From an uncultured Bacteroidia bacterium (lineage in GTDB: Bacteria > Bacteroidota > Bacteroidia > Bacteroidales > ML635J-15), in the NCBI GenBank assembly GCA_902776565.1, contig CACYQN010000006.1, positions 154,709 to 218,708 on the forward strand: 64,000 nucleotides of DNA, in the 5' to 3' direction. This document shows, piece after piece, positions 11,343 through 29,567 of this stretch. The notes beneath the pieces were generated by a model. The model worked only from the letters and a program-made list of their open reading frames with translations. It was not told the origin of the DNA and ran no database searches. Made by a program: the position numbers and the translations under genes. Position 1 is the first letter of the stretch. Every line of letters starts with the position of its first letter.

Positions 11343-11545
11343 GGGATGCGCCAGTTTGAGGGCTAAAGCCAGTTTGAATGGCTGCGCCGTTTAACTTCGT
11401 TGAGGGCTTCGCCGTTCTATGCCTTAGGTGTTTTTCGCTACGCTGTTTCAATGGCTGACGCCGTTTCTATGCTTCGCGTTTCTAGGTTTCTCGCTGCGCT
11501 GTTTGAATGGCTGCGCCGTTTCTAAGTTCTCCGTCCCCCGAGCTT
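11343..11545. repeat. Degenerate short-word array (units like GGCTGMCGCCGTTTGAA / GTTTCTATG) starting directly after the stop codon
   Basis: Repeated ...CGCC(A)GTTTGAR..., GCCGTTTCTA..., GCGCTGTTTGAATGG words seen by eye. Same family as 4279-4545, 13293-13445 and 16045-16200. Confidence 0.7.
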
Positions 11546-11600
11546 GTTGAGTCGTGGCGCGCCGCGACCGTACTAATGTTCAAGGGTTTAATGATTTGAG
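11455..11600 (+). repeat. Left copy of the ~150-nt direct repeat bracketing the AAA+ ATPase cassette
   Basis: TGACGCCGTTTCTATGCTTCGC...CGCTGCGCTGTTTGAATGGCTG...TCTAAGTTCTCCGTCCCCCGAGCTTGTTGAGTCGTGGCGCGCCGCGAC..TACTAATGTTCAA recurs at 13357-13518 with a few indels. Confidence 0.8.
11551..11568 (+). repeat. GC-rich palindrome GTCGTGGCGCGCCGCGAC (T-G wobble on the + strand)
   Basis: An 18-nt imperfect palindrome, with identical copies at 13469-13486 and a reverse-complement copy at 55741-55758. Confidence 0.8.
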
Positions 11601-11674
11601 GGTAAAGCCATTGTATTACAGTGTCGTAGGTTGTATTTCGATTGTCGCTCTGCGTCTCAGGACATACCATGAAA

Positions 11675-11838
11675 ATGCGTTTTATTTTTCTGGGAGTACG
11701 GTATTTTATGCCTTTGCAGAAAAATAAAATAATATTTATGAAAGTAATGTTTTGATATTAAATGTATTACAAATTTTTTATGCATTTTATTTTTCTGTGA
11801 ATGGTATATTTTTTATCTTTGCAGAAAAATAAAACAAT
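11675..11838 (+). repeat. Tandem duplication (2 x 59 nt, 105-nt period) of the promoter/leader of the ATPase gene
   Basis: 11675-11733 ATGCGTTTTATTTTTCTGGGAG...CCTTTGCAGAAAAATAAAATAAT versus 11780-11838 ATGCATTTTATTTTTCTGTGAA...TCTTTGCAGAAAAATAAAACAAT. Confidence 0.75.
11814..11821 (+). promoter_or_regulatory. -7 promoter box TATCTTTG (AAA+ ATPase gene)
   Basis: Exact TAnnTTTG match 23 nt upstream of ATG 11844. The upstream duplicate copy has the degenerate TGCCTTTG. Confidence 0.5.
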
Positions 11839-11843
11839 GTTTT

Positions 11844-13292
11844 ATGGGTTATATTGTTGGTAGAGAAGCAGAAACAGAAGAATTACTCGACTTGTACAAT
11901 AATGGCAGAGCAGAGTTCGTAGCTGTCTATGGTCGTCGCCGCGTTGGGAAGACATTCCTTGTGGACGAAGCATTGAAAGGTAAAATTACATTTCGCCATT
12001 CGGGATTGTCGCCCGTGGATGAGCAAAATAAGAAAAACGGATTGAAAGAACAATTGAAGTATTTTTATTTGTCATTGCTGAAACACGGAATGAAAAAGAG
12101 CAAGTGTCCGACATCGTGGCTCGAGGCGTTCTTTATGCTCGAAATGCACCTTCAGTCGCAGGATAATGGTTCGCGGCAGGTGGTTTTTCTTGACGAACTT
12201 CCGTGGATGGACACGCCTCGGTCGGGTTTCATTACTGCCTTGGAAGCCTTTTGGAACGGATGGGGATGCCATAGGGACAATATGATGCTTGTGGTATGCG
12301 GTTCGGCAAATTCGTGGATGCTTGACAATTTGGTCAACAACCACGGCGGATTGTACGGAAGGACTACATACGAGGTGAAACTCAAACCATTCACTCTCGC
12401 GGAATGCGAGGCGTTTCTATTGGGCAAGGGCATAATAATGTCTCGCTACGACATAGTCCAAGCCTACATGATTACTGGTGGCATTCCATATTATCTAGGA
12501 TATATGAGGAAAGGCATGAGCCTCGCACAGAATATCGACAGGCTTTTCTTTGCAAAGGGAGCAAGATTGCATGATGAATACGACCGTCTGTTTGCATCGG
12601 TGTTTGCAAAGCCCGAACAAATGAAAAGTATTGTGCAGTTGCTGGGAAACAGGCGTTGTGGCTATACGCGAAAAGAGATTCTCACCAAAATAGGACTAGA
12701 TGATTGCGGAGCATCTACCAAATTGCTGAAAGCCCTAGTAGCCAGCGATTTTATTCAGTCGTATGTTCCGTTTGGCAAAAGCAAGCGCGAAGAACACTAT
12801 AAGTTGACCGACCCGTTCTGCTTGTTTTACATGAAGTTTGTAAAAGGGCAAAAGGAAATCGACCCCGAATTTTGGATACACAACGCAGCTTCGCCGTCGG
12901 TGAGTTCGTGGCGCGGATTCGCTTTCGAGGAAGTTTGCCTCGCACATTTTCGTCAAATAAAGAAAGCTCTTGACATACTTGGTGTTTCGTCAACGCAATC
13001 GGCTTGGGCGTTAAAAGGTGACGATGAAAAGGAAGGCACTCAAATCGACCTGCTGATAAATCGTAAGGACAATGTTGTGAATATGTGCGAAATGAAATTT
13101 TATAACGAGAAATTTACTGTCAACAAACCGTATTATGCCAAATTGGTTCATCGGCAGAATATCTTGTCGGAAAAGTTGCCGAGGAAAACGATTGTCCACA
13201 ATGTGCTAGTAACGACAGAAGGCTTAACATACAACGAGTACAGTGGCATTTTCCAGAAAGTTGTAACAATTGACGATTTATTTGGAAAATGA
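11844..13292 (+). CDS. AAA+ ATPase (archaeal-type ATPase domain with DUF234-like C-terminus)
   Basis: IVGREAETEELLDLY...FVAVYGRRRVGKTFLV (Walker A), VVFLDELPWM (Walker B). 482 aa. Confidence 0.75.
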   Translation: MGYIVGREAETEELLDLYNNGRAEFVAVYGRRRVGKTFLVDEALKGKITFRHSGLSPVDEQNKKNGLKEQLKYFYLSLLKHGMKKSKCPTSWLEAFFMLEMHLQSQDNGSRQVVFLDELPWMDTPRSGFITALEAFWNGWGCHRDNMMLVVCGSANSWMLDNLVNNHGGLYGRTTYEVKLKPFTLAECEAFLLGKGIIMSRYDIVQAYMITGGIPYYLGYMRKGMSLAQNIDRLFFAKGARLHDEYDRLFASVFAKPEQMKSIVQLLGNRRCGYTRKEILTKIGLDDCGASTKLLKALVASDFIQSYVPFGKSKREEHYKLTDPFCLFYMKFVKGQKEIDPEFWIHNAASPSVSSWRGFAFEEVCLAHFRQIKKALDILGVSSTQSAWALKGDDEKEGTQIDLLINRKDNVVNMCEMKFYNEKFTVNKPYYAKLVHRQNILSEKLPRKTIVHNVLVTTEGLTYNEYSGIFQKVVTIDDLFGK

Positions 13293-13445
13293 ACACGCCG
13301 TTTCTGTGCTTCGCGTTTCTCGCTGGCGCTGTTTGAATGTTTCATGTTTCTATGGATGACGCCGTTTCTATGCTTCGCCGTTTCTCGCTGCGCTGTTTGA
13401 ATGGCTGGCGGTTGCTGAGCTTGTCGAAGTACGCCGTTTCTAAGT
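13293..13445. repeat. Degenerate short-word array directly after the ATPase stop codon
   Basis: Words GCCGTTTCTGTG, GCGCTGTTTGAATG, GACGCCGTTTCTATG. Same family as 11343-11545. Confidence 0.7.
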
Positions 13446-13518
13446 TCTCCGTCCCCCGAGCTTGTTGAGTCGTGGCGCGCCGCGACTATACTAATGTTCA
13501 AAGATTTGATGATTTGAT
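13357..13518 (+). repeat. Right copy of the ~150-nt direct repeat bracketing the AAA+ ATPase cassette
   Basis: Aligns with 11455-11600, including the palindrome at 13469-13486 and the tail TACTAATGTTCAAAGATTTGATGATTTGA. Confidence 0.8.
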
Positions 13519-19293: not shown

Positions 19294-22200
19294 CTACCTC
19301 TTTATCGTAACACATCCCTTCAAGGGAACAATTCCTTCGCCAAGATAGATGACATACCAGTATGAATCGCTTGCAAGCGGACGACCACCGTATATGCCAT
19401 CCCATTCGCAGATAGCACCCTTTGAACTGAATACCTGCTTTCCATAGCGGTCATATACCGAAACCTTGGAATCGGGATACAAGTAAAGACCGGTCACAAT
19501 CCAAGTGTCGTTGAAGCCATCGCCGTTCGGAGTGAAGAACGAGGGGATTCCGAGCGAAGCGTCAAGATAAGTCTGCATCTGGTCGTAGCAATGGTTATTA
19601 TCCTGAACCATAATATCATAGAAATCAGAAGGCAAATCATCGAAGATGTTTGACGACTGCCAGGTCTTTCCATCTGCAGAATAGTAATATGGAGGCGTTC
19701 CTCCTTGAACATCAACGATTACAAGTCCTTTTCCAGATGTAATCTTAATAATCTCGGGATAGTTGTCGGAAAAACGAGCCCTCATAGAAGTGCTTGCTGT
19801 ACAACCGTTTGTACTTGTAACACTAACCGAATAATAACCACCGGGATTAGCAATGTCAATATACGGATTTGCCGAGCCATCGTTCCATGCATAAGTTTCG
19901 TAGGTTGTGTTCAGGTAAAGTCGGCGCGACTGAAGTCCGCAAAATACCGTATCATCGCCAAAGTATGGCTCGACAATATAATTCTTGGTTGCATTTACAT
20001 TGTCGCTGATAGTACATCCACTGGCATCGGTTACCGTAACAGAATAGAAACCAGACGAATATATATCTATTGACGGCGAGCTTTCGCCCGTATTCCAAAT
20101 GTATGACAGATAATTATTTCTCGACGACAATGTTGCATAATCCTCGCAGAAATTAAGATTGTCAGGAAGTCCAAAAGGAGGTACACTAATAACATTAATA
20201 TGAACCGTATCGGCATTGGAACATCCATATTTATTTGTTACCACAAGCCAGTATGTACCGCTTCTATCGACAGCAATAGTAGAGTTTGTCTCGTTATTAT
20301 TCCAACGGAAAGTGCAATTCTGGTATGATTCAGACGACGACAACAAAACCTTGCCATCTGTACAATATGTTGTATCTGCACCCAAATTTACTATTGGTGC
20401 GTCAATCATTTCAACATTTATGAAATCGGTAGCCTTGCACGAATTAGCGTCCGAAGCCACAACGGTAAGCGGTCCATTTGTCGAAACCCAGACGGAACGG
20501 CCTTCTGCACCATTGCTCCAAGAGTATGCGGCAAAACCATCCGGCGCGGTAACCCTAACGCTATCGCCTTCACAATAATATGTATCGGCACCTAGTTCGA
20601 TAGTCGGACGCGGATACTTGTGAGTCGTAATAGTGTCATAATAGTAGCAGATGCCATTGTATGCCTTTACCCAGAATGTATATTCTATAGGTGTTGTAAA
20701 AGTAGGGGAACTAATTCCATTCGACCAATAGTACGACAGGAAACCGCTCGCCTCAATGGTTAGCATCTCGTCGGGACAGAAATAATAGTCCGTCTGCGGC
20801 AACACGTCAATATTTGGATATTGCGAAACACTGAACATTGCCGAAGCCGTGCACGAATTGGCAGAAGTTATTGTTACTGAATAAGTTCCTGGTCTATGAA
20901 TAGAAATTTCGCGCGTATTTGCACCTGTGTTCCAGACATACGACGACATACCTTCGTTGACTGCAACCTGAACAGTATCACTTGGACACAAGGTCGGAAT
21001 GCTTGGCAACATAACCACAGGAGGCTGCGGAGGCGACAAAGTCAACGAAGTAGTAATGTAGCAACGGGCATTGTCAACAACTGTCAACGAATAGGTTCCT
21101 GCCGAAACACCCGTCAAAGTCTCAAAAGTGGAGCCGTTCGACCAGTAATACAAGAAAGGAGCCTCTCCCCCCTCGACATCAATGCTTGCACCCATACCAT
21201 TTGCACTACAGCCAGTACTTATGATATCCGTTTGTCCGAAACTCATGTAGCGTTCAAACTTTATAATTAACGCATCATCCTGACCATTAGATGTTTCCGT
21301 GTCGGCATTCATTGTGATGCTCGAAGCAAATCCGCCTCCGGCGACAAGATTATTTGCATAATCTATTGCAATGGAATTTATATAGTTGGTATTATTCTGG
21401 TTTCCAAAGATGCGCATATTTACGTTTCCGTCAGAACCATACCTTATTATATAAAAGTCGCGTCCACTGCCGCTCGATGTAGAAGCCTCGGAACCGAATT
21501 CAATAGTTCCCGAATAACCACCAGCAACGTATGTATTTCCATTCTGGTCACATAATATATCGCCAACTTCAAGCGTTCCTGTTCCCGAAAATGCTATTGT
21601 ACCCTGCGAAACTCCCGATGACGAAAACTTTACAATGAACGGATTTGAATTAGTCTGCTTATATGCCATATATACATCACCAGCAGAGGTAACACCCAAA
21701 GCCCTTATGCTGTCGTTTCCTGAAGCTCCTCGTTGCACAGCCCACTGTACGGCACCCGACGAGTCAAATTTAGCAAGGTAAACATTAATGTCGTTTGGCG
21801 ACTGCAAATTGCTGCCTCCCATAGAAATAGACCCTTTGAACTCTGCTGCCAAATAAACATTGCCGGCATTGTCACATGTGACCCGACGGCCATAGTCATG
21901 CGACGAGGATGCGTTCGTCATTGACCACAAAACATTTCCTTCGCTATCAAACTTCACAAGGAAAGCATCATTTGCACCTCTGGCGTTCTGAAACATAGAA
22001 GTCGAACTGATTTGCAATGCATAATTGAAATACCCCGTGACAATGACATTGTTGCTTCCATCAACAACGACATCGTATGCATTGTCATCGTTGATACACC
22101 CTAACGTCCTAACATAAAGCATGTTTCCATCATTATCAAGTTTCAAGAGGAAACCATCCTTAGAGCCCAGCGATGGAAAACGATTGCCGTCAAAAGCTGT

Positions 22201-22593
22201 ATTATCATTTGAAAGACCAGCCACATAAACATTTCCATCAGCATCTACGGCAATAGCGTTTGCCTGTTCTACAGCATTGCTACCACCGCTTTTCAGCCAC
22301 AATACAGAACCTTCGGGAGACATCTTGGCAACATAGAAATCGGTATTTCCTTCCGACACCACAGTATTTCCATCAACGGAAAGCGTTTCTGCAAAAGTTC
22401 CTGCAAAGTAAATGTTACCAGCATTGTCAACGGCCACATCCGAAACAAACTCAGCATTGGCATTGCCATAGCTCTTCATCCACGAATAGCCTATACGGTC
22501 GCTACAGTCGATACTGTCGCCCGCATGCTGAGAAAACACAGGTACGAAGCACAAAACAAACAATATCAACGCAATAATCTTCTTCATAGGCAT
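19294..22593 (-). CDS. Large secreted protein with beta-propeller-like repeats, Ig-like repeats and a T9SS type B C-terminal sorting domain
   Basis: C-terminus IPSFFTPNGDGFNDTWIVTGLYLYPDSKVSVYDRYGKQVF...WDG matches the gliding-motility (CHU_C / type B) CTD. A signal peptide is present. Repeated NAGNVY / DGNVYV motifs. Confidence 0.8.
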   Translation of the reverse strand: MPMKKIIALILFVLCFVPVFSQHAGDSIDCSDRIGYSWMKSYGNANAEFVSDVAVDNAGNIYFAGTFAETLSVDGNTVVSEGNTDFYVAKMSPEGSVLWLKSGGSNAVEQANAIAVDADGNVYVAGLSNDNTAFDGNRFPSLGSKDGFLLKLDNDGNMLYVRTLGCINDDNAYDVVVDGSNNVIVTGYFNYALQISSTSMFQNARGANDAFLVKFDSEGNVLWSMTNASSSHDYGRRVTCDNAGNVYLAAEFKGSISMGGSNLQSPNDINVYLAKFDSSGAVQWAVQRGASGNDSIRALGVTSAGDVYMAYKQTNSNPFIVKFSSSGVSQGTIAFSGTGTLEVGDILCDQNGNTYVAGGYSGTIEFGSEASTSSGSGRDFYIIRYGSDGNVNMRIFGNQNNTNYINSIAIDYANNLVAGGGFASSITMNADTETSNGQDDALIIKFERYMSFGQTDIISTGCSANGMGASIDVEGGEAPFLYYWSNGSTFETLTGVSAGTYSLTVVDNARCYITTSLTLSPPQPPVVMLPSIPTLCPSDTVQVAVNEGMSSYVWNTGANTREISIHRPGTYSVTITSANSCTASAMFSVSQYPNIDVLPQTDYYFCPDEMLTIEASGFLSYYWSNGISSPTFTTPIEYTFWVKAYNGICYYYDTITTHKYPRPTIELGADTYYCEGDSVRVTAPDGFAAYSWSNGAEGRSVWVSTNGPLTVVASDANSCKATDFINVEMIDAPIVNLGADTTYCTDGKVLLSSSESYQNCTFRWNNNETNSTIAVDRSGTYWLVVTNKYGCSNADTVHINVISVPPFGLPDNLNFCEDYATLSSRNNYLSYIWNTGESSPSIDIYSSGFYSVTVTDASGCTISDNVNATKNYIVEPYFGDDTVFCGLQSRRLYLNTTYETYAWNDGSANPYIDIANPGGYYSVSVTSTNGCTASTSMRARFSDNYPEIIKITSGKGLVIVDVQGGTPPYYYSADGKTWQSSNIFDDLPSDFYDIMVQDNNHCYDQMQTYLDASLGIPSFFTPNGDGFNDTWIVTGLYLYPDSKVSVYDRYGKQVFSSKGAICEWDGIYGGRPLASDSYWYVIYLGEGIVPLKGCVTIKR

Positions 22594-22596
22594 ATT

Positions 22597-23637
22597 CTAA
22601 AAGTCATAAACCATTGATGCAACATTATGCTTGTCCAAAGTAGTAAACTTGTCGCGATACAGACGGAATCCCAACGCAATCTGATGAGAACCAAAATTAT
22701 ACCGCTGCAATCCGGTAAGTCCGATTTCACACAGATACGAAACGGAAATATTCTTTACAATAAAGCCGACCATTGGCGAGATTGACAACGGACTAACATT
22801 TCCGACATCAAGCGTCTGCTTATAAGTAAGTCCAATCACGACCTCATTTTCATCCTTTGTATAGACAGTCCTAATTTTTTTGCCAGAAAGAAGCTTAAAG
22901 CGTACGCCAAGGTCCATCTGGTTCATATTCTTCATGTTAGTCTTGAATATAACAAGCGGAGCAAGTTGCATGTTACTCATCAGCCAGAATGTTTTTCCAG
23001 CATGGACATTCATATTGACGCTCAACGAACGTTCAAGCCGTTGATTATAGGCAGGGCAAGTCCACTGCAACAAGTTGTCGAAACTTACGCCAGCAATCAA
23101 TCCGCCATGTGTCAGCAACACGCCGAAATTGGCATCGTAACCGAAATAATTCTTGGTGCTATAATCTACAATCGGGTCGTATATGTCCCTGTCGAAACGA
23201 CTTTCATCGTATGTATGCATAAATACGGTAGCACCGAACCCAAACGAAAGAATCGTCTTAATATTTCGTTTTGTCCGCATAAGGAACTGGAACGAACCGT
23301 TCACCTGCAAACCAGTCTGCGAATTCACACCATTCTTATCGGTATAAAGGAAACCGCCAAGTCCTCCGTCGCGTGCCTTGAAACGAGAACGGAACATCAG
23401 AAAAGTCGTGCTTGGAGTTTTTTCCGGACCAAAACCTATCCATTGCTGACGGTGAGCAGCCTTTACCTGTATCATATCAACCAAACCCGTAAAAGCGGGA
23501 TTCAGCAAAGTATTATCGAACACATACTGCTCATACACAGGAGCATCCTGCGCAAAAGTCCTTGCTTCCGCCAAAACAAGCGGAAACAGAATCACCAGTA
23601 ATATTCGCCATGCCTTACGCATAAATGGTTTTTCCAA
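22597..23637 (-). CDS. PorP/SprF-family T9SS outer-membrane protein
   Basis: N-terminal YEQYVFDNTLLNPAFTG motif. Beta-barrel-like composition with a C-terminal aromatic residue. Lies 3 nt upstream of its type B cargo gene. Confidence 0.8.
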   Translation of the reverse strand: MEKPFMRKAWRILLVILFPLVLAEARTFAQDAPVYEQYVFDNTLLNPAFTGLVDMIQVKAAHRQQWIGFGPEKTPSTTFLMFRSRFKARDGGLGGFLYTDKNGVNSQTGLQVNGSFQFLMRTKRNIKTILSFGFGATVFMHTYDESRFDRDIYDPIVDYSTKNYFGYDANFGVLLTHGGLIAGVSFDNLLQWTCPAYNQRLERSLSVNMNVHAGKTFWLMSNMQLAPLVIFKTNMKNMNQMDLGVRFKLLSGKKIRTVYTKDENEVVIGLTYKQTLDVGNVSPLSISPMVGFIVKNISVSYLCEIGLTGLQRYNFGSHQIALGFRLYRDKFTTLDKHNVASMVYDF

Positions 23638-23646
23638 TATAAACTA

Positions 23647-23654
23647 CAAAGGTA
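23647..23654 (-). promoter_or_regulatory. -7 promoter box TACCTTTG (porP/sprF-cargo operon)
   Basis: Exact TAnnTTTG on the minus strand, 10 nt upstream of ATG 23637. Confidence 0.45.
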
Positions 23655-23731
23655 GCATTTTATTTTATACGGGGGAACGAGAGTGCGAAAAAAAGATTAA
23701 AAGGCTAACAGGCTCGCAGACTGCAATGGAC

Positions 23732-23915
23732 TGCACATACTTTCTTTTTTCGCAAAGGTAATAAATTTATTCATCGCTGTCGGATATTTGGTTTTGAATT
23801 TGGAAACAAAAAACTCGGCAAGCACATACGCAACTGCCGAGTTGATTATTTCCAGTTATTGTCATTGTTCAAGTCAGAGCCTTTGGTTACTTCGTAATAA
23901 ACAAGAGCCTACAAC
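23732..23915 (-). repeat. Downstream copy of the ~185-nt direct repeat bracketing the toxin cassette
   Basis: TGCACATACTTTCTTTTTT(C/T)GCAAAGGTAATAAATTT..ATTCATCGCTGTCGGATATTTGGTTTTGAATTTGGAAACAAAAAA...CAACTGCCGAGTTGATTATTTCC recurs at 24802-24988. The core is near-identical and the tail is more diverged. Confidence 0.85.
23807..23842 (-). terminator. Rho-independent terminator downstream of the toxin gene (inside the repeat copy)
   Basis: Minus strand: ACTCGGCA-loop-TGCCGAGT followed by TTTTTTG. Confidence 0.7.
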
Positions 23916-23923
23916 AAACACGA

Positions 23924-24529
23924 TTACCTTTTTAATAAATCAGCAAATAATTTCTCAAAATGTTCCTTAAACCATAATGGTGGATTATTTGTTACCTCGT
24001 GAATGCCATCTCTGCCAATGTGCAAAGCGACAACCTTTCCGAAATCTGAATTACCATCAATAAAAGTAATATTATCAAAAAGGCTTAAATTTTCTTTTGT
24101 TTTCTTCAAACCTTCATTAAAATTAAACCTAATCACATCGTCGTTAACATCATGTCCTCCAGTCTGATACCTCTGAATTACACGACAGACACTCTCATCT
24201 TCGGAATATAAACCGAAATAATACATCGAAATCTTAAAGTTTGCTTCCTTGAATTCCAATATCATATTTAGAACCAACTCGCTTGAAAAGTTCGTTTCAA
24301 ATGCAAAATCCGATTTATGTTCAATGGCATAATTCTTCTGCTTTTCCAATTCAGATGCAACCGTACCACTTATCCAATGTTCTGGCCAATCGGGATGCTC
24401 CTTGCGAAGATTCATTGCCAGTTTGTCTCCATCGAACGATTTGGTTCCGATATAAAATGGACAAAGCCGACTTTTTCCTGCCCCATTTGGACCAGCTACT
24501 ATTGTAAACTCCGGTCTTTTCTCCATCAC
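23924..24529 (-). CDS. Zeta-toxin / COG4185-like P-loop kinase (putative toxin)
   Basis: Walker A TIVAGPNGAGKSRL, FAFETNFSS block, RYQTGGHDVNDDVIRFNF block. The start is GTG 24529 or ATG 24526, immediately after the TAG of the upstream ORF. Confidence 0.7.
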   Translation of the reverse strand: MMEKRPEFTIVAGPNGAGKSRLCPFYIGTKSFDGDKLAMNLRKEHPDWPEHWISGTVASELEKQKNYAIEHKSDFAFETNFSSELVLNMILEFKEANFKISMYYFGLYSEDESVCRVIQRYQTGGHDVNDDVIRFNFNEGLKKTKENLSLFDNITFIDGNSDFGKVVALHIGRDGIHEVTNNPPLWFKEHFEKLFADLLKR

Positions 24530-24808
24530 CTATAATTTAATATGGGCAAATCTACCGCATCCGGGCTGTGCCGTGCGCATAATTATATTATATGTGCGAG
24601 TATTGCGATCAAGAATTACTTTATCTTCGCTACCATCAGGATTTGCAAGATATATTGAACCATCATCTCCGAAAAATGGTACGGAAAAACCTTTCAGCCA
24701 CGATTCTGCATAAATACGCTCAATCTCACGCCGAACCTCTTCGTTTACTTCCTTCACGGTTTTGCCATTCTGCAATTCAATATTTTCTATATCGCTGTAT
24801 TTGCACAT
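24530..24808 (-). CDS. 92-aa protein of unknown function, putative cognate antitoxin
   Basis: Directly abuts the toxin gene (stop TAG followed by GTGATG) and has its own TACCTTTG -7 box 15 nt upstream. No recognisable motif. Confidence 0.5.
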   Translation of the reverse strand: MCKYSDIENIELQNGKTVKEVNEEVRREIERIYAESWLKGFSVPFFGDDGSIYLANPDGSEDKVILDRNTRTYNIIMRTAQPGCGRFAHIKL

Positions 24809-24822
24809 ACTTTCTTTTTTTG

Positions 24823-24830
24823 CAAAGGTA
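24823..24830 (-). promoter_or_regulatory. -7 promoter box TACCTTTG (92-aa ORF / toxin operon)
   Basis: Exact TAnnTTTG on the minus strand, 15 nt upstream of ATG 24808. A duplicate box lies in the other repeat copy at about 23752-23759. Confidence 0.5.
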
Positions 24831-24880
24831 ATAAATTTTATTCATCGCTGTCGGATATTTGGTTTTGAATTTGGAAACAA

Positions 24881-24916
24881 AAAAAAACTCAGCAGCCACA
24901 GACGCAACTGCCGAGT
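24881..24916 (-). terminator. Rho-independent terminator downstream of the 233-aa membrane protein gene (inside the repeat copy)
   Basis: Minus strand: ACTCGGCA...TGCTGAGT (one mismatch) followed by a T-run. Confidence 0.6.
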
Positions 24917-25081
24917 TGATTATTTCCTATTATTGTCTTTATTAAAGGCAGAGCCTTGTATTTGATTCGTAGAAGGCAAGAGCTAACATCGTGCAAATAT
25001 TTTTTTGGGGGGCTAACTCGGCTAAAAGGCTAAAAGACAACTAGACTGTTAGACTGTAAGCCTGTTAGACCATCAGACTTT

Positions 25082-25783
25082 CTACCCTTTCCTTAAATTT
25101 GCAATCGACAGCATCACGCCCAATACCACGCCGAGCAAGGCTGCAAAAAGCACCTGCAAGTTGGCGGGAAGCAGGAAGGTTATCGTATGCGCCGGGAACC
25201 AGAACAGCGGTATGTACTTCTTGAAAACCAAGCTCCACTGCGCCTTCCAGTTCAAACCGACGATAATCTGCTCCATCTTTATGGGACGGAAGAAACCGCG
25301 GAGAGTTCCACCGTTGTTAAGTATATGAGTGTCGGTAATCTTGTGCAAAGTCATAAATACCGGCGCGAAAATCGAGTTCATCGCCACACTGACAGCGAAA
25401 GCTACGCCAACCTTACCCCACGACAGTTCGCCAGCAAGCAGACCAGCCATCGTGCCTTTTTCGCATCCACCGACAATGTCAAGGAATGTCGGTACGCCCG
25501 ACTTGAAGATTATCATTGCCATGCAGATTCCCATACCGAGTATTCCCCACACAATTGCGCGTGGCAGTACGCCGAAACCTTTCTGGTTGTACACTCCCTT
25601 TGATATGCGCAAACCGAGCATCTCACCTACAGTCGCCAGTATCGCGAACTTGAAGAAACTCATTATGAACGGATGTGTCGCCGTCCACAGGTTGAAATAT
25701 TCGAGAAAGTGCGTCTGCGGAATGAAAAACGGTATCAGCACCACAATCACACAGATGATAAATATGAAATCTTGTTTTTTCAT
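25082..25783 (-). CDS. Polytopic membrane protein of unknown function
   Basis: 233 aa with about six hydrophobic segments. I do not recognise the family. Confidence 0.6.
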   Translation of the reverse strand: MKKQDFIFIICVIVVLIPFFIPQTHFLEYFNLWTATHPFIMSFFKFAILATVGEMLGLRISKGVYNQKGFGVLPRAIVWGILGMGICMAMIIFKSGVPTFLDIVGGCEKGTMAGLLAGELSWGKVGVAFAVSVAMNSIFAPVFMTLHKITDTHILNNGGTLRGFFRPIKMEQIIVGLNWKAQWSLVFKKYIPLFWFPAHTITFLLPANLQVLFAALLGVVLGVMLSIANLRKG

Positions 25784-25843
25784 TATTTTGTTTTTATAAG
25801 TTGTTCATTATTAAAAGCATGGGCACATTGAACGATTATTTGA

Positions 25844-25993
25844 GGAGATTCCGCATAAACGAATTCACAAGGCTCGTTCCTACGCCTGTTCATTCTGTTT
25901 TGCGGAATGACGGAATGGATGTCATTTCGGAAGGTATAATGAACCAGCGATACGGAACGGGGAGCTGAGTGAATTAACCTATCCGAAATCTCC
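25844..25993. ncRNA. Conserved four-way-junction structured element, copy 1 (strand and nature unknown)
   Basis: Stems GGAGATT/AATCTCC, CCGCA/TGCGG, AATGAC/GTCATT and TCGGA/TCCGA. The loop GATACGGAACGGGGA is conserved, and there are compensatory changes relative to 53025-53233. Confidence 0.45.
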
Positions 25994-25995
25994 CA

Positions 25996-26085
25996 CATTG
26001 CAACTCCTTGTTCTGTAAAAGCATAAGGCAATTTTCTCACCCCGCCACGATTTGAATTCATATTTGATATCGCATTTTGCGACAT
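25996..26085 (-). pseudogene. ORF6N-domain gene remnant (30 codons)
   Basis: Translates to MSQNAISNMNSNRGGVRKLPYAFTEQGVAM. LPYAFTEQGVAM is a signature block of ORF6N-domain proteins as I remember them. Similarity stops at the edge of the structured element. A second, stop-containing copy of the same segment lies at about 26150-26195. Confidence 0.45.
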
Positions 26086-26263
26086 CAAACATACCATCAA
26101 TCCTATTATCAGCATCATAACCATCTATAATACAATGATATAATCATTTTTCCCCGTTACATTTTGTCCAAATTGGATGTCGCAAAATGCGACTTCCAAT
26201 TTTTATCAAAAAAGCACAAGAACTTCCCAACGAAAGTCCCTGTGCCTATATGCCTTGAAAATA

Positions 26264-28336
26264 TTACTTTTCAATTCTGATACGAGCGTCAACGGCAACG
26301 ACATTGCGCGGATTGCCAAGCAACGGGTTCAAGTCCATCTCGGCAATTTCTGGAGCAGCCATCACCAATGCGCTTACGCGAGCAACCTGGTCGGCATAAA
26401 TGTCGATATTAACAGGTTCCTGTCCGCGAACACCCTGCAAAATCTTGTAGCCACGCAACTTGGTGAGCATTTCCTTTGCTTCGGCAGCGGTGATTGGAGC
26501 AAGTGCGCTCTGTACATCCTTCAGCACCTCGATGAAGATACCGCCAAGTCCGAAGAATACCTGATGCCCGAACTTCGGGTCACGGATTGCACCTATATAT
26601 ACATCGGTACCATCAAGCATCGGATACATTTCCACTGCGTAGGTATCCTGAATCTTAATAAGACGGTCGAATTCCTTTGCAACTGTGTCCATATCCTTTA
26701 CGCCAAGGACAACACCTCCAACATCAGACTTATGCAGAGGACCTACAACCTTCATTACCAGCGGAACATCCTTGCTGCAACCTACTTCCTTTGCGAAAGC
26801 AAGCGCATCTTCCTTCTTGTCAACTTCTACCGATTTCTTGCGGTTGATTCCTGCCGCATCGAGAAGCTCGTTGTAGTCGGCAATTTCCATGTAACCGTTC
26901 TGTACGCGGTCGATGGTCTTGCGGATACGGGCAACATCAATCTTCGGAAGCTCAACATTTTCGGGCTGTGGCTTCGGAGTGTGGTAAATCTTGCACAATG
27001 CATTACCAAGCACGCATTCCTCCGGGAAGTTAATATGTCCCTTTGCTATGAAATCGTCAATATCGTCCTTTACATTGATAATTGATGGCAATACTGGGAA
27101 AATCGGCTTCTTGCATGTCTTCATCTTTTCGCCAAGTAGGTCGTAAACCTCTCTGTTGCTGAACAATCCTGGTGAACCGAAGATAACTACTGAGAAATCA
27201 ATGTCTTCGTATTCGTTTTCAACGGTATCGATGATATAGCCAAGTTGTTCTGCAGTACCTGTTGCGAGGAAGTCGATTGGATTACCAACCGATGAACCGC
27301 CAAAGAGCTTTGCGAGCAGCGGTGCACTTGCCGGATGATCCTTCAGAGGAGGAACTTCCATACCGCCATTCGACAAAACATCGGTAAGCATTACGGCAGG
27401 ACCACCAGCGTGGGTGATAACAGCGCAACGGTTACCCTTAATTTCAGGATGCATGAAAACAGCGCAAACGGTTGTCAGTTCCTGACGGTTGCTACAACGA
27501 ACTATACCAGCCTTACGGAAAAGAGCATCAACAGCGGCATCGTTTGTTGCCAAAGCGCCAGTGTGCGACGAAGCAGCACGGCTACCAGCGGCAGAACCGC
27601 CCGACTTAATGGCGGCAATGTGGCATCCCTTGTTGATGAGCGAGCGTGAATGCTTGAGCATCTTCTGCGGGTCGCCAATCTTTTCCATATAGAGCATGAT
27701 TACGCGCGAACTCTTAACTGGGTCGAAAGTATTGTCAAGGTGTTCGAGAACATCCTCGATACCAATCTGAGCCGAGTTTCCGACTGCCCATACACTATTG
27801 AATTTCAAACCGTTGGAAATACCATATTCCTTGATGAACACAGCAGTTGCACCCGAACCGGTGATGAAATCAACACCATGAGGGTCGAGCTGCGGAATTG
27901 GAGTATCGAAAGCACCGCAATAGTTGCTGTTGAGGAAACCTGTGCAGTTAGGACCAATCAGGCTGCCGCCTACATTGTTGATATATTCAACAATCTGGCG
28001 TTCAATCTTTGCGCCTTCTTCGTTCTCCTCGCCGAAACCAGCCGACAGGATGATGAAACCGCCGGTCTTCTTGGTATTTGCAAGAACATCGACAGCGTGA
28101 GCGCAGAACTTAGCCGCGATTGCAAGCACAGCGCAGTCAACTTCAGGCAATTCCTCTACCGTATGGTAGCTCTTTACGCCCTGAACTACATCCATCTTGG
28201 GATTAACAACATACACCTGACCTTTGAAAGGACTTGAAAGCAAATTCTTCAGCACCTTTCCGCCGGGCTTATGAACATCGTCGGAACCACCAACGATTAC
28301 AACGCTTTTGGGATTTAATAATTTACTATTTATCAT
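26264..28336 (-). CDS. ADP-forming acyl-CoA (acetyl-CoA) synthetase family protein (CoA-binding, ligase-CoA and ATP-grasp domains)
   Basis: N-terminal LLNPKSVVIVGGSDDVHKPGG CoA-binding fold, a GPNCTG block and a C-terminal ATP-grasp region. Start moved to ATG 28336. Confidence 0.85.
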   Translation of the reverse strand: MINSKLLNPKSVVIVGGSDDVHKPGGKVLKNLLSSPFKGQVYVVNPKMDVVQGVKSYHTVEELPEVDCAVLAIAAKFCAHAVDVLANTKKTGGFIILSAGFGEENEEGAKIERQIVEYINNVGGSLIGPNCTGFLNSNYCGAFDTPIPQLDPHGVDFITGSGATAVFIKEYGISNGLKFNSVWAVGNSAQIGIEDVLEHLDNTFDPVKSSRVIMLYMEKIGDPQKMLKHSRSLINKGCHIAAIKSGGSAAGSRAASSHTGALATNDAAVDALFRKAGIVRCSNRQELTTVCAVFMHPEIKGNRCAVITHAGGPAVMLTDVLSNGGMEVPPLKDHPASAPLLAKLFGGSSVGNPIDFLATGTAEQLGYIIDTVENEYEDIDFSVVIFGSPGLFSNREVYDLLGEKMKTCKKPIFPVLPSIINVKDDIDDFIAKGHINFPEECVLGNALCKIYHTPKPQPENVELPKIDVARIRKTIDRVQNGYMEIADYNELLDAAGINRKKSVEVDKKEDALAFAKEVGCSKDVPLVMKVVGPLHKSDVGGVVLGVKDMDTVAKEFDRLIKIQDTYAVEMYPMLDGTDVYIGAIRDPKFGHQVFFGLGGIFIEVLKDVQSALAPITAAEAKEMLTKLRGYKILQGVRGQEPVNIDIYADQVARVSALVMAAPEIAEMDLNPLLGNPRNVVAVDARIRIEK

Positions 28337-28453
28337 TTTGTTTTTAATTATTTTCTTATGCGTGCAAAGATAAGTTTTTATTATCAAACAAACAATCGTG
28401 ATTTTGGAATATTATGAACAATGAGAAAATGGTAATTTGTACGACATCAACAC

Positions 28454-28479
28454 AAAAAAAGGTGAGGCTATTCCTCACC
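28454..28479 (-). terminator. Rho-independent terminator after the 28524 gene
   Basis: Minus strand: GGTGAGG-AATAG-CCTCACC followed by TTTTTTT. Confidence 0.8.
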
Positions 28480-28523
28480 AATCGTAAATCGTAAAATCGT
28501 CAATCTAAAATCGTAAATCAAAT

Positions 28524-29555
28524 TTACTTTATTCCATTCATAGTCTTATAGGTATTGGCATCGCTGACATCCAAGCCTTTCGACTTCATTTCGGCAGCCA
28601 ATTTGGATGCATAAACACCTTTTTCGTAACTGTTCAGCGACTTTACATAATCGAGGGCATACTTGTACTCGTTGAGTTCGCGTCCCATATTATGTGCGTG
28701 ATAAAGGTACTGGTATGCCTGTTCGGGCTTGCCAATCTTTATGTAGTTCTTTGCTATCTCGGAAGCGAGCTGCATCGAGAAGCGCTTCTTTTCTACATCG
28801 TTGTAGCCTTTCTGCTTGAGTTCGGAAACCAAACGTCTGTAAGCACCGCCAAATGCAGCGATAGCATCGCGGTTCTGGTCGAACTCGGTATAATTCTGAC
28901 CCTGGCTGTAAAGCAAGCTGGCGTTACGCTTTTCAAGAATTGCAAAGTCAGACTCGCTGAAACCATCAGTAGATTCGTTCTGCTTGGCAAGTATAGGAGC
29001 ACAAATCTCGTTGAACTTCTTCACAGCCTCTGCCCTATCCTGATAGTCGTATGCGACGAGGAAATTCTTTGTCGAGTAGCCCTTTTCGAACATATCCGAC
29101 ATCACTGTGATATTCCTATACATCGACTTGCCAGCAGCACCCGAAGCATTGCAAGCATAGAATATAATGTCGCCGAACGACTTTCCGCCGACAGTACCTT
29201 CAACTACAATCATATAGTCGGCAATGTCGAAGCGCACATCACCGCCAGTCACCATCTTCACAGGCGAAAGAATGTCGAACTTGCGGATGTCGTCGGCAAC
29301 CTCGATGGTCGTAACCTTCGACTGGCTAAGTAAAGACATCTTCTTCAGTTCCAGAGTTTTACCCTTGAACAAAACGTCAAGCACCTCGCCCAACGTAACA
29401 TTCTTCGAACCATTGGCGGCAAAGCGCAACGAAGCGTCCTGCATATTGAACGAACATTCCTGCGGAAGCCAGTACTTGTCAACCGCATCGTATTTCTGAG
29501 CACTTGCGAAAGCGCAAACTAACGAAAGACCGAAAATTATATATAACTTCTTCAT
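28524..29555 (-). CDS. Secreted protein with C-terminal TPR-like helical repeats, unknown function
   Basis: Signal peptide MKKLYIIFGLSLVCAFASAQ. Helical repeat region with AYQYLYHAHNMG. Paralog of the next gene. Confidence 0.6.
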   Translation of the reverse strand: MKKLYIIFGLSLVCAFASAQKYDAVDKYWLPQECSFNMQDASLRFAANGSKNVTLGEVLDVLFKGKTLELKKMSLLSQSKVTTIEVADDIRKFDILSPVKMVTGGDVRFDIADYMIVVEGTVGGKSFGDIIFYACNASGAAGKSMYRNITVMSDMFEKGYSTKNFLVAYDYQDRAEAVKKFNEICAPILAKQNESTDGFSESDFAILEKRNASLLYSQGQNYTEFDQNRDAIAAFGGAYRRLVSELKQKGYNDVEKKRFSMQLASEIAKNYIKIGKPEQAYQYLYHAHNMGRELNEYKYALDYVKSLNSYEKGVYASKLAAEMKSKGLDVSDANTYKTMNGIK

Positions 29556-29567
29556 TGCTAGCATTTT

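Follow-up and report, generated by a model that had tools for sequence, protein, structure and literature searches.

A zeta-family toxin gene and its 92-aa partner between direct copies of a host terminator-promoter module in a rumen Bacteroidales genome: probable insertion with long target duplication and later spread

In a 64,000-nucleotide stretch of a 3.36-Mb rumen Bacteroidales genome (G000; C6:154709–218708, assembly GCA_902776565.1; the whole stretch is referred to as the window), a zeta-family toxin gene and the gene of a 92-aa candidate antitoxin were found on the minus strand between two direct copies of an approximately 185-nt intergenic module. Each copy consists of a terminator half (T) followed by a promoter half (P); the upstream copy is designated B (T_B, P_B) and the downstream copy A (T_A, P_A). 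The explanation that we favor, with a probability of roughly 60%, is one founding insertion that duplicated a long stretch of its target, followed by spread through homologous recombination within a hypervariable islet. According to this explanation, the horizontally acquired pair would have been joined once, in an unsampled lineage, into the spacer between the gene of a 233-aa membrane protein (mem233) and yggS, and this event would have duplicated the entire spacer of ~185 nt (T then P), giving the order T-P-antitoxin-toxin-T-P. The left joint would have been made via the 7-nt microhomology ATGTGCA and the right joint directly past the toxin stop codon; both joints can be located in the sequences described below. 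From this order it follows that the upstream P is predicted to transcribe the pair, the downstream T to terminate, and the downstream P to serve the next gene. Homologous recombination in P and in the core genes on either side would then have carried the unit P-pair-T_A-P between strains and between species of the genus. This would have put it behind differing upstream sequences and, in this genome, before porP after a separate rearrangement.

The direct repeat at 23732 and 24802 that had been described in the original prediction is real. A repeat search gave two ungapped blocks (23745–23813/24816–24884 and 23805–23883/24879–24957) at a spacing of 1071–1074, and the gapped alignment of the two copies starts at C/TTGCACATAC (23731/24801) and ends at approximately 23915/24988, with three small indels. 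BLAST analysis of copy B against the whole genome retrieved copy A with 87% identity over 182 nt and an E value of 9.6e-56; in a genome of 3.36 Mb, a chance repeat can thus be dismissed. As predicted, the tail is more diverged than the core: P_A (23732–23813) and P_B (24802–24885) are identical at 81 of 84 positions (96%), and T_A (23814–23915) and T_B (24886–24988) at 80 of 105 (76%). A terminator scan and folding revealed on the minus strand of both copies a strong hairpin with a U-run, then a TACCTTTG box, and then GAAAGTATGTGCA. The T half is composed of two small hairpins (similar to repetitive extragenic palindromes (REPs) in T_B) and a strong predicted terminator hairpin with its U-run (folding at −33 to −37 kcal/mol, with z scores of −3.6 to −4.6), and the P half comprises ~84 nt with TACCTTTG...GAAAGTATGTGCA at its end. 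In copy B, ATGTGCA represents the last 7 nt of the predicted cassette promoter and the start of the 92-aa open reading frame (ORF); in copy A, which ends in ATGTGCAG, it starts a dead ORF of 13 codons (MCSPLQSASLLAF followed by a stop codon). The cassette is also AT-richer than its neighbors, as had been claimed, with a GC content of 0.32–0.42 versus 0.42–0.46 for porP and 0.49–0.52 for the membrane-protein gene. A scan of 23400–25300 with Rfam yielded sub-threshold noise only, and the ORF list contained no recombinase or transposase ORF within 19294–29564.

Genome BLAST analysis found the full 185-nt module at this locus only; the other matches covered at most 103 nt (C21) or 37–60 nt (a third copy of the P core before yggS). 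Parts of the module do recur: the T part has paralogues on C21 and C13, its tail hairpins are present in approximately 12–15 copies genome-wide, and the region of the TACCTTTG box matches many promoters. Such recurrence of sub-parts is what could be expected of a widespread intergenic element standing twice near the pair by chance, the counter-case that the original prediction itself had named. With the full module being locus-specific and relatives carrying an orthologous single-copy spacer, it was not borne out and appears scarcely credible.

The origin of the module became apparent from 39 species genomes within the genus and from some 45 metagenomic contigs with an identical antitoxin, membrane protein, or PorP. 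In five species (G021, G008, G003, G002, and G050), a single T-P module follows mem233 and the cassette is absent; the gene order is acyl-CoA-synthetase-like gene, mem233, an array of 8-nt words, one T-P module, a second word array, and yggS (Ala_racemase_N). From this order, P was assigned as the promoter/leader of yggS and T as the terminator of mem233. P also precedes yggS in G010, and even in the distant G052 the native P before yggS is still recognizably homologous. The duplicated stretch is therefore, as the original prediction held, a host intergenic segment that forms a single-copy spacer in relatives, and not the end of a transposon. A locus with one module and no cassette, which had been proposed as a check, exists, albeit before yggS and not before porP. 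Likewise, the location of the module between the 233-aa gene and porP is correct for this genome, whereas yggS takes the place of porP in the relatives.

The relatives also locate both joints. The original prediction had regarded the 7 nt as part of the module that continues into the ORF, which needs correction in view of homologous pairs (61–81% identical) at unrelated loci, viz. adjacent to nrdD and MmeI-type genes, following ALGX genes, and in a different family of the order. These loci have unrelated DNA upstream and are free of T, P, and bracketing repeats, and the pairs start with ATGTG(C/T)A; ATGTGCA is thus native to the antitoxin ORF. In cassette-free relatives, the heptamer closes P as GTATGTGCAG, the first word of the yggS leader array. 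Its presence in both the ORF and the empty leader therefore identifies the left joint as a 7-nt microhomology. At the right joint, the similarity of T_A to native T alleles starts directly after the TAA of the toxin gene, and the C terminus of the toxin is native as judged against its homologues. As both joints lie at ORF edges, the payload consists of two ORFs only, from start to stop codon (885 nt). The cassette then has as its promoter (P) and terminator (T_A) the halves of a single host module, contiguous there and exchanged in order here, which is the signature of target duplication by an insertion. We also considered P as the pair's own promoter, with the single module of the relatives being a scar; this is disfavored by the unrelated DNA upstream of homologous pairs elsewhere and by the homology of the G052 yggS promoter to P.

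Among the 39 genomes, the pair is present in three: this one, G051, and G052. The flanking genes of G052 are 76–80% identical to those of this genome, and the segment P-pair-T_A-P is 96.4% identical; T_A together with the final 9 nt of the toxin gene even reaches 100% identity over 110 nt (95% for T_A of G051). T_A is 76–78% identical to local or orthologous T, matching the single T of cassette-free G021 at 83 of 106 positions, compared with 98 of 104 for T_B. Thus, T_A is foreign and cassette-borne, and T_B is local. The downstream copy was always of the T_A type across genomes and the ~45 contigs. These data bear on an unequal crossover, or other local tandem duplication, around a pre-existing pair in this genome, which the original prediction had offered as one possibility. 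The 96% identity of the P halves is what a recent duplication, or gene conversion, would give; the T halves, at only 76%, comprise a G021-like T_B and a T_A that recurs unchanged in G052, and the layout T-P-pair-T_A-P is found in three species and many metagenomic strains. A duplication in this genome is thus very improbable and, by the divergence of T_A from T_B, excluded as the source of the repeats here. Since the repeat halves are unequal in age and T_A is constant, the founding event did not take place in this genome.

Several observations point to exchange among lineages. At least five kinds of upstream sequence precede P-pair: T_B, a short T, a third T allele, a different terminator (T2), and unrelated DNA; T2 also stands before P-yggS in cassette-free G010. 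Chimeric copies occur, namely a downstream T with a B-type hairpin in G051 and an A/G021-like upstream copy in L098, indicating sequence exchange between the repeats. Other alleles are carried by strains whose PorP side is 98.6–99.1% identical to this genome: L096, L099, and L105 have, as G011, neither module nor pair but only a word array of ~65 nt, and in L111 a single P, with 100% identity to P_B, stands before porP, behind a different 113-aa gene and without the pair. For L096 and L099, identity to this genome amounts to 99.1% on the porP side and 96% on the mem233 side, which places a recombination boundary within this spacer. From these sequence patterns we infer the spreading step of the favored explanation.

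An alternative route for this step, suggested in the original prediction, is a Campbell-type integration: a nonreplicating circle (pair, T_A, and P) would integrate by a single crossover in P, independently in each lineage and reversibly. The part of the suggestion that a circle brought a homologous segment along accords with a T_A that is foreign and cassette-linked next to a local upstream T. Several unrelated upstream contexts all meet the cassette at the left edge of P, recombination between the copies is evident from the chimeras, and the single P of L111 before porP is compatible with an excision product. However, a junction of the T_A tail, P, and the antitoxin ORF, the mark of a circle or tandem, was not present in the ~45 contigs; these likewise contained no precise excision product and, in the porP context, no one-module deletion product. 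Moreover, the high-identity tract of G052 runs past the second P into a word array and the remnant of an ATPase gene, and the entire mem233 side of this genome differs from conspecifics lacking the toxin-antitoxin (TA) pair (96% versus 99%); both features are in keeping with a double crossover that replaced a longer tract. A circle would, in addition, first need the same two illegitimate joints. A circular intermediate is thus a possible route for the spreading step, which on the sequence patterns appears less supported than exchange of longer tracts, and we consider it rather doubtful.

The spacer exhibited at least eight occupancy states between conserved genes, all without mobility genes: empty, with the TA pair, with the TA pair in two deletion forms, with a DUF4143 ATPase gene, and with further inserts (113-, 142-, 208-, 238-, 240-, and 134+256-aa, and a four-gene insert). 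It thus appears to behave as a hypervariable islet between core genes. In seven contigs (L109, L111, L126, L104, L097, L070, and L100), a common alternative segment of ~150 nt (aatctaaccaata...gtgcggttaatgcaggtcgccgcc...) replaces T; it directly follows AAATATTTGCAC, precedes various small unknown genes, and may be a leader or small RNA of that allele.

The toxin gene (23924–24529, minus strand; 200–201 aa) was assigned to the Pfam family Zeta_toxin (PF06414) with 27.2 bits versus a cutoff of 22.3. A phmmer search of the toxin against the PDB gave no match, so that a fold search was needed. The model (predicted local distance difference test, pLDDT, 92) had PezT (2p5t), zeta (3q8x/1gvn), and AvrRxo1 as first Foldseek matches in the PDB, with template modeling (TM) scores of 0.63–0.67 and 13–18% identity for the top matches (2p5t, 3q8x, 1gvn, and 4z8q). 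The zeta-like assignment made in the original prediction is thereby supported. The toxin is intact in this genome, with the Walker A motif and the conserved residues D35, E78, R116, and R120; Walker A, D35, and R116/R120 are invariant across the toxin alignment. The partner gene (24530–24808, minus strand) stops 3 nt before the toxin ATG, and in intact homologues a gene of the 92-aa family is always located directly upstream of the Zeta_toxin gene. This family has 39 homologues in the protein database, all from gut/rumen-type metagenomes, and M1, C2, and Y4 were invariant in 19 of 19 aligned homologues (M-C-x-Y start). The partner model (pLDDT 94) shows one long helix against a four-stranded sheet. 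No PDB fold match at E ≤ 0.001 was obtained for it; Pfam, NCBIfam, and PADLOC gave no match, and family and fold searches found no similarity to epsilon or PezA antitoxins. NCBIfam and PADLOC returned nothing useful for the toxin either. Judged by family and predicted fold, a role of the pair in addiction or defense is probable.

Three different toxin lesions were observed next to an antitoxin protein that is 100% identical in all cases. In G052, a 1-nt deletion causes a frameshift in the Walker A region; in G051, L077, L109, L110, and L112, the deletion 24310–23895 fuses codon 73 to T_A; and in L070, L073, L074, L076, and L078, the deletion spans 24419–23957. More distant homologues were also found as lone antitoxin genes. 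The toxin gene has thus been inactivated independently at least three times with the antitoxin left intact, pointing to repeated toxin loss and antitoxin retention; toxicity and its neutralization by the partner are putative. In four strains with the last-named deletion (L070, L073, L074, and L078), the sequence past the first ~17 nt of T_A is replaced and the next gene encodes a Peptidase_S8 protein of 989–1028 aa with a Por_Secre_tail domain. The downstream partner of the islet therefore varies, being yggS, porP, or the S8 peptidase gene.

Insertions of this kind have been described for restriction-modification (RM) genes: they are flanked by duplications of 46–423 bp that are single-copy in the empty genome and contain no mobility genes (Furuta et al. 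2010, PMC2853133). Long target duplication of RM gene complexes was also reported by Nobusato et al. (2000, Gene 259:99), here taken from its citation in PMC2654758. According to PMC2853133, a long target duplication is characterized by repeats >30 bp, a single copy in an insert-free relative, and an insert <20 kb without mobile-element genes; the locus has repeats of ~185 nt, a single T-P module in five relatives, and an 885-nt payload without integrase or transposase. The same study requires a repeat that is not a dispersed, att, or tRNA sequence; the whole module is locus-specific, yet T has paralogues (C21 and C13) and its tail hairpins are dispersed. It also requires near-identical copies, which applies to P (81/84) and not to T (80/105), where T_B matches the target at 98/104 and T_A at 83/106 positions. 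The unequal T copies are explained by later transfer; the founding genome itself was not found. As in the RM cases, a small addictive unit without mobility genes lies between repeats far longer than transposon target duplications, the repeats align to one copy in the insert-free relative, and the insert is AT-richer than the host. Unlike these cases, the cargo is a zeta-family TA pair in rumen Bacteroidales, the duplicated target is a complete terminator and promoter module, and the insert is ORF-precise and borrows host signals. The repeat copies further differ in age, because the unit has since moved between lineages. Papers retrieved for "toxin-antitoxin" together with "long target duplication" dealt, by their titles and abstracts for the most part, with RM systems or were TA reviews; in one of them the latter phrase stands in the reference list only.

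Four points weigh against insertion with target duplication followed by spread. Neither a founder allele (T_A-P-pair-T_A-P) nor a native single T_A was present in the 39 genomes of the genus or the metagenome scan, in which every T_A was linked to a cassette, so that the founding event has to be taken as reconstructed and not as observed. The two copies in this genome are unequally diverged, and a fresh duplication is not visible from this genome alone. The 7-nt identity could be the scar of an older cassette loss. Finally, we know of no established biochemical mechanism for long target duplication.

Other known systems share part of these features. The minimal mobile elements of Neisseria and core-gene-flanked integration hotspots comprise differing small cassettes in one spacer, which lack mobility genes and whose exchange is most readily accounted for by homologous recombination in the flanks. 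The present spacer resembles them in its variable cassettes without mobility genes and in a probable exchange through the flanks, judged from mosaic identity patterns; it differs by the duplicated T-P module around one cassette. In Escherichia coli, the chromosomal TA system ccdO157 was described as a decaying "genomic islet by itself" (Mine et al. 2009, as summarized in PMC2654758). Common to both are a lone two-gene TA system in a spacer between core genes, its patchy occurrence, and a repeatedly inactivated toxin with a persisting antitoxin. The family there is CcdAB, unlike here. To our knowledge, no long flanking duplication of a promoter/terminator module has been described for ccdO157. 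With epsilon/zeta and PezAT systems, the pair has in common the zeta/PezT P-loop kinase fold with a Walker A motif and a small partner encoded immediately upstream, but the toxin is shorter (200 aa) and only 13–18% identical to members of solved structure, and the partner lacks epsilon/PezA similarity. Assignment as an integron gene cassette was rejected: the stem is an ordinary terminator with a T-run (GTTTTTT), there is no GTTRRRY core, no integrase ORF lies nearby, and the cassette has its own promoter.

In a further explanation, the T hairpins and/or the word arrays would be recognition sites of some site- or structure-specific recombination system (integron-like attC sites or a REP/RAYT, i.e. 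REP-associated tyrosine, transposase) that would also have filled the locus of a DUF4143 ATPase cassette on contig 21. In its favor, a T-like element (79–83% identity) lies inside the 248-nt repeats that bracket this ATPase gene, the T tail hairpins form a small dispersed family, a Y1_Tnp (IS200-like) gene adjoins a T copy in G021 and has an orthologue in this genome, and at both loci G011-type alleles have nothing left between the two word arrays. Against it, no integrase is present near the locus, the hairpin has no attC-type core, Y1_Tnp in this genome lacks flanking copies of the hairpins, and pair homologues at other loci are free of T, P, and bracketing repeats. The boundary at 24988, too, is that of a shared alternative allele with the same following sequence in seven contigs. 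Two related proposals were rejected on these grounds: 24988 as a site-specific insertion point, as the seven contigs breaking there share one alternative right-hand sequence, and the tail hairpins as REPs of the neighboring Y1_Tnp. It is therefore improbable that T and the word arrays are working sites of an integrase-less cassette exchange in rumen Bacteroidales, perhaps via a Y1/RAYT-like single-strand enzyme. If this were true, a T/word-array system would load and unload small defense or addiction cassettes (TA pair, DUF4143 ATPases) at several loci.

A genome-wide self-BLAST analysis for other repeat-bracketed cassettes returned coding repeats in numbers too large for classification without gene calls; the two ATPase cassettes were examined further. 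In the first (C21:47440–49605; L021, 3440–5600), a 453-aa AAA_14/DUF4143 ATPase gene lies inside 248-nt direct repeats that are 87% identical. The repeats contain the T-like element and four GCGACCTCGCTGAGGTCG hairpins; inside them, the gene has 24-nt tandem repeats on either side. The ATPase gene is absent in G011 and G051; G021 has one repeat copy and no gene, and in G019 the gene is present but T accompanies it on a single side. The second AAA ATPase cassette is located in the window (11455–13518) between direct repeats of ~150 nt. Its empty site is found in G021, G008, and G050, with overlapping single-copy matches in G008 and G050, and a copy of its ATPase gene with 94% identity is present at another G021 locus (C3:160750–162374). 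The tail hairpins of T are TAGGCTC..GAGCCTA and AAGGCTCTGCCTT. One full T copy of G021 (L115, 3463–4176; C3) stands directly before the 144-aa IS200-like Y1_Tnp gene; the orthologue in this genome (C8:42483–42869, 87% identical) has no such hairpins beside it.

The upstream flank of the islet, mem233 (25082–25783, minus strand), is conserved and syntenic after the acyl-CoA-synthetase-like gene in all relatives examined. The downstream flank of this lineage only is porP/sprF (22597–23637, minus strand; Pfam PorP_SprF, 2e-49) with its own TACCTTTG box (23649–23656): here and in G011, ~105 kb of DNA, with porP first, separate the module from yggS. In the left word array (23690–23731), a remnant of the yggS leader array is joined to the array upstream of porP; the junction at 23722 is common to this genome, G011, L096, and L099. 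The porP adjacency is a later rearrangement common to this genome and G011. The third P core is retained, with the leader, at the yggS gene of this genome (C6:72363–73052); next to yggS, C6:72363–73194 (L022) contains ~35 nt from the end of P, followed by ATGTGCAG, tccattgc, and an extended word array. The 105-kb porP block is therefore flanked by direct copies of the P core and leader. In G021, the DNA adjoining this yggS copy sits ~92 kb from the mem233-yggS locus.

The 8-nt arrays (AGRCTNNN, including ctgttagcc) start at the first base past the stop codon of mem233, and the yggS/porP leader is filled with them as well. Their length and sequence differ among species (23690–23731 and, as the array behind mem233, 25010–25081 in this genome; L036–L041 in relatives), and in G011, L096, L099, and L105 they are the sole remainder between the two flanking genes. 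On the other side of mem233, ~387 nt (25787–26172) separate it from the acyl-CoA-synthetase-like gene; this stretch is missing in all relatives, in which the gap measures 42 nt. At this position L096, L098, L100, L101, and L105 contain an intact gene of 294–297 aa with an ORF6N domain; this genome contains debris and an inserted structured element with inverted arms (26051–26089/26173–26211).

Taken as insertion with target duplication and later recombination, the locus represents a known kind of gene gain, with no new mobility mechanism and no new mobile element. It would extend long target duplication, so far described for RM genes, to a TA pair and to Bacteroidales. As the payload is promoterless and ORF-precise, such an insertion is predicted to yield an expressed and insulated unit without silencing the downstream gene. 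The 92-aa partner adds a family with a confident predicted fold that is unmatched in the PDB. In this genus, the alleles would together show, at the population level, the stages that a chromosomal addiction module passes through: gain, spread across species at 96–100% identity, and repeated loss of the toxin with the antitoxin kept.

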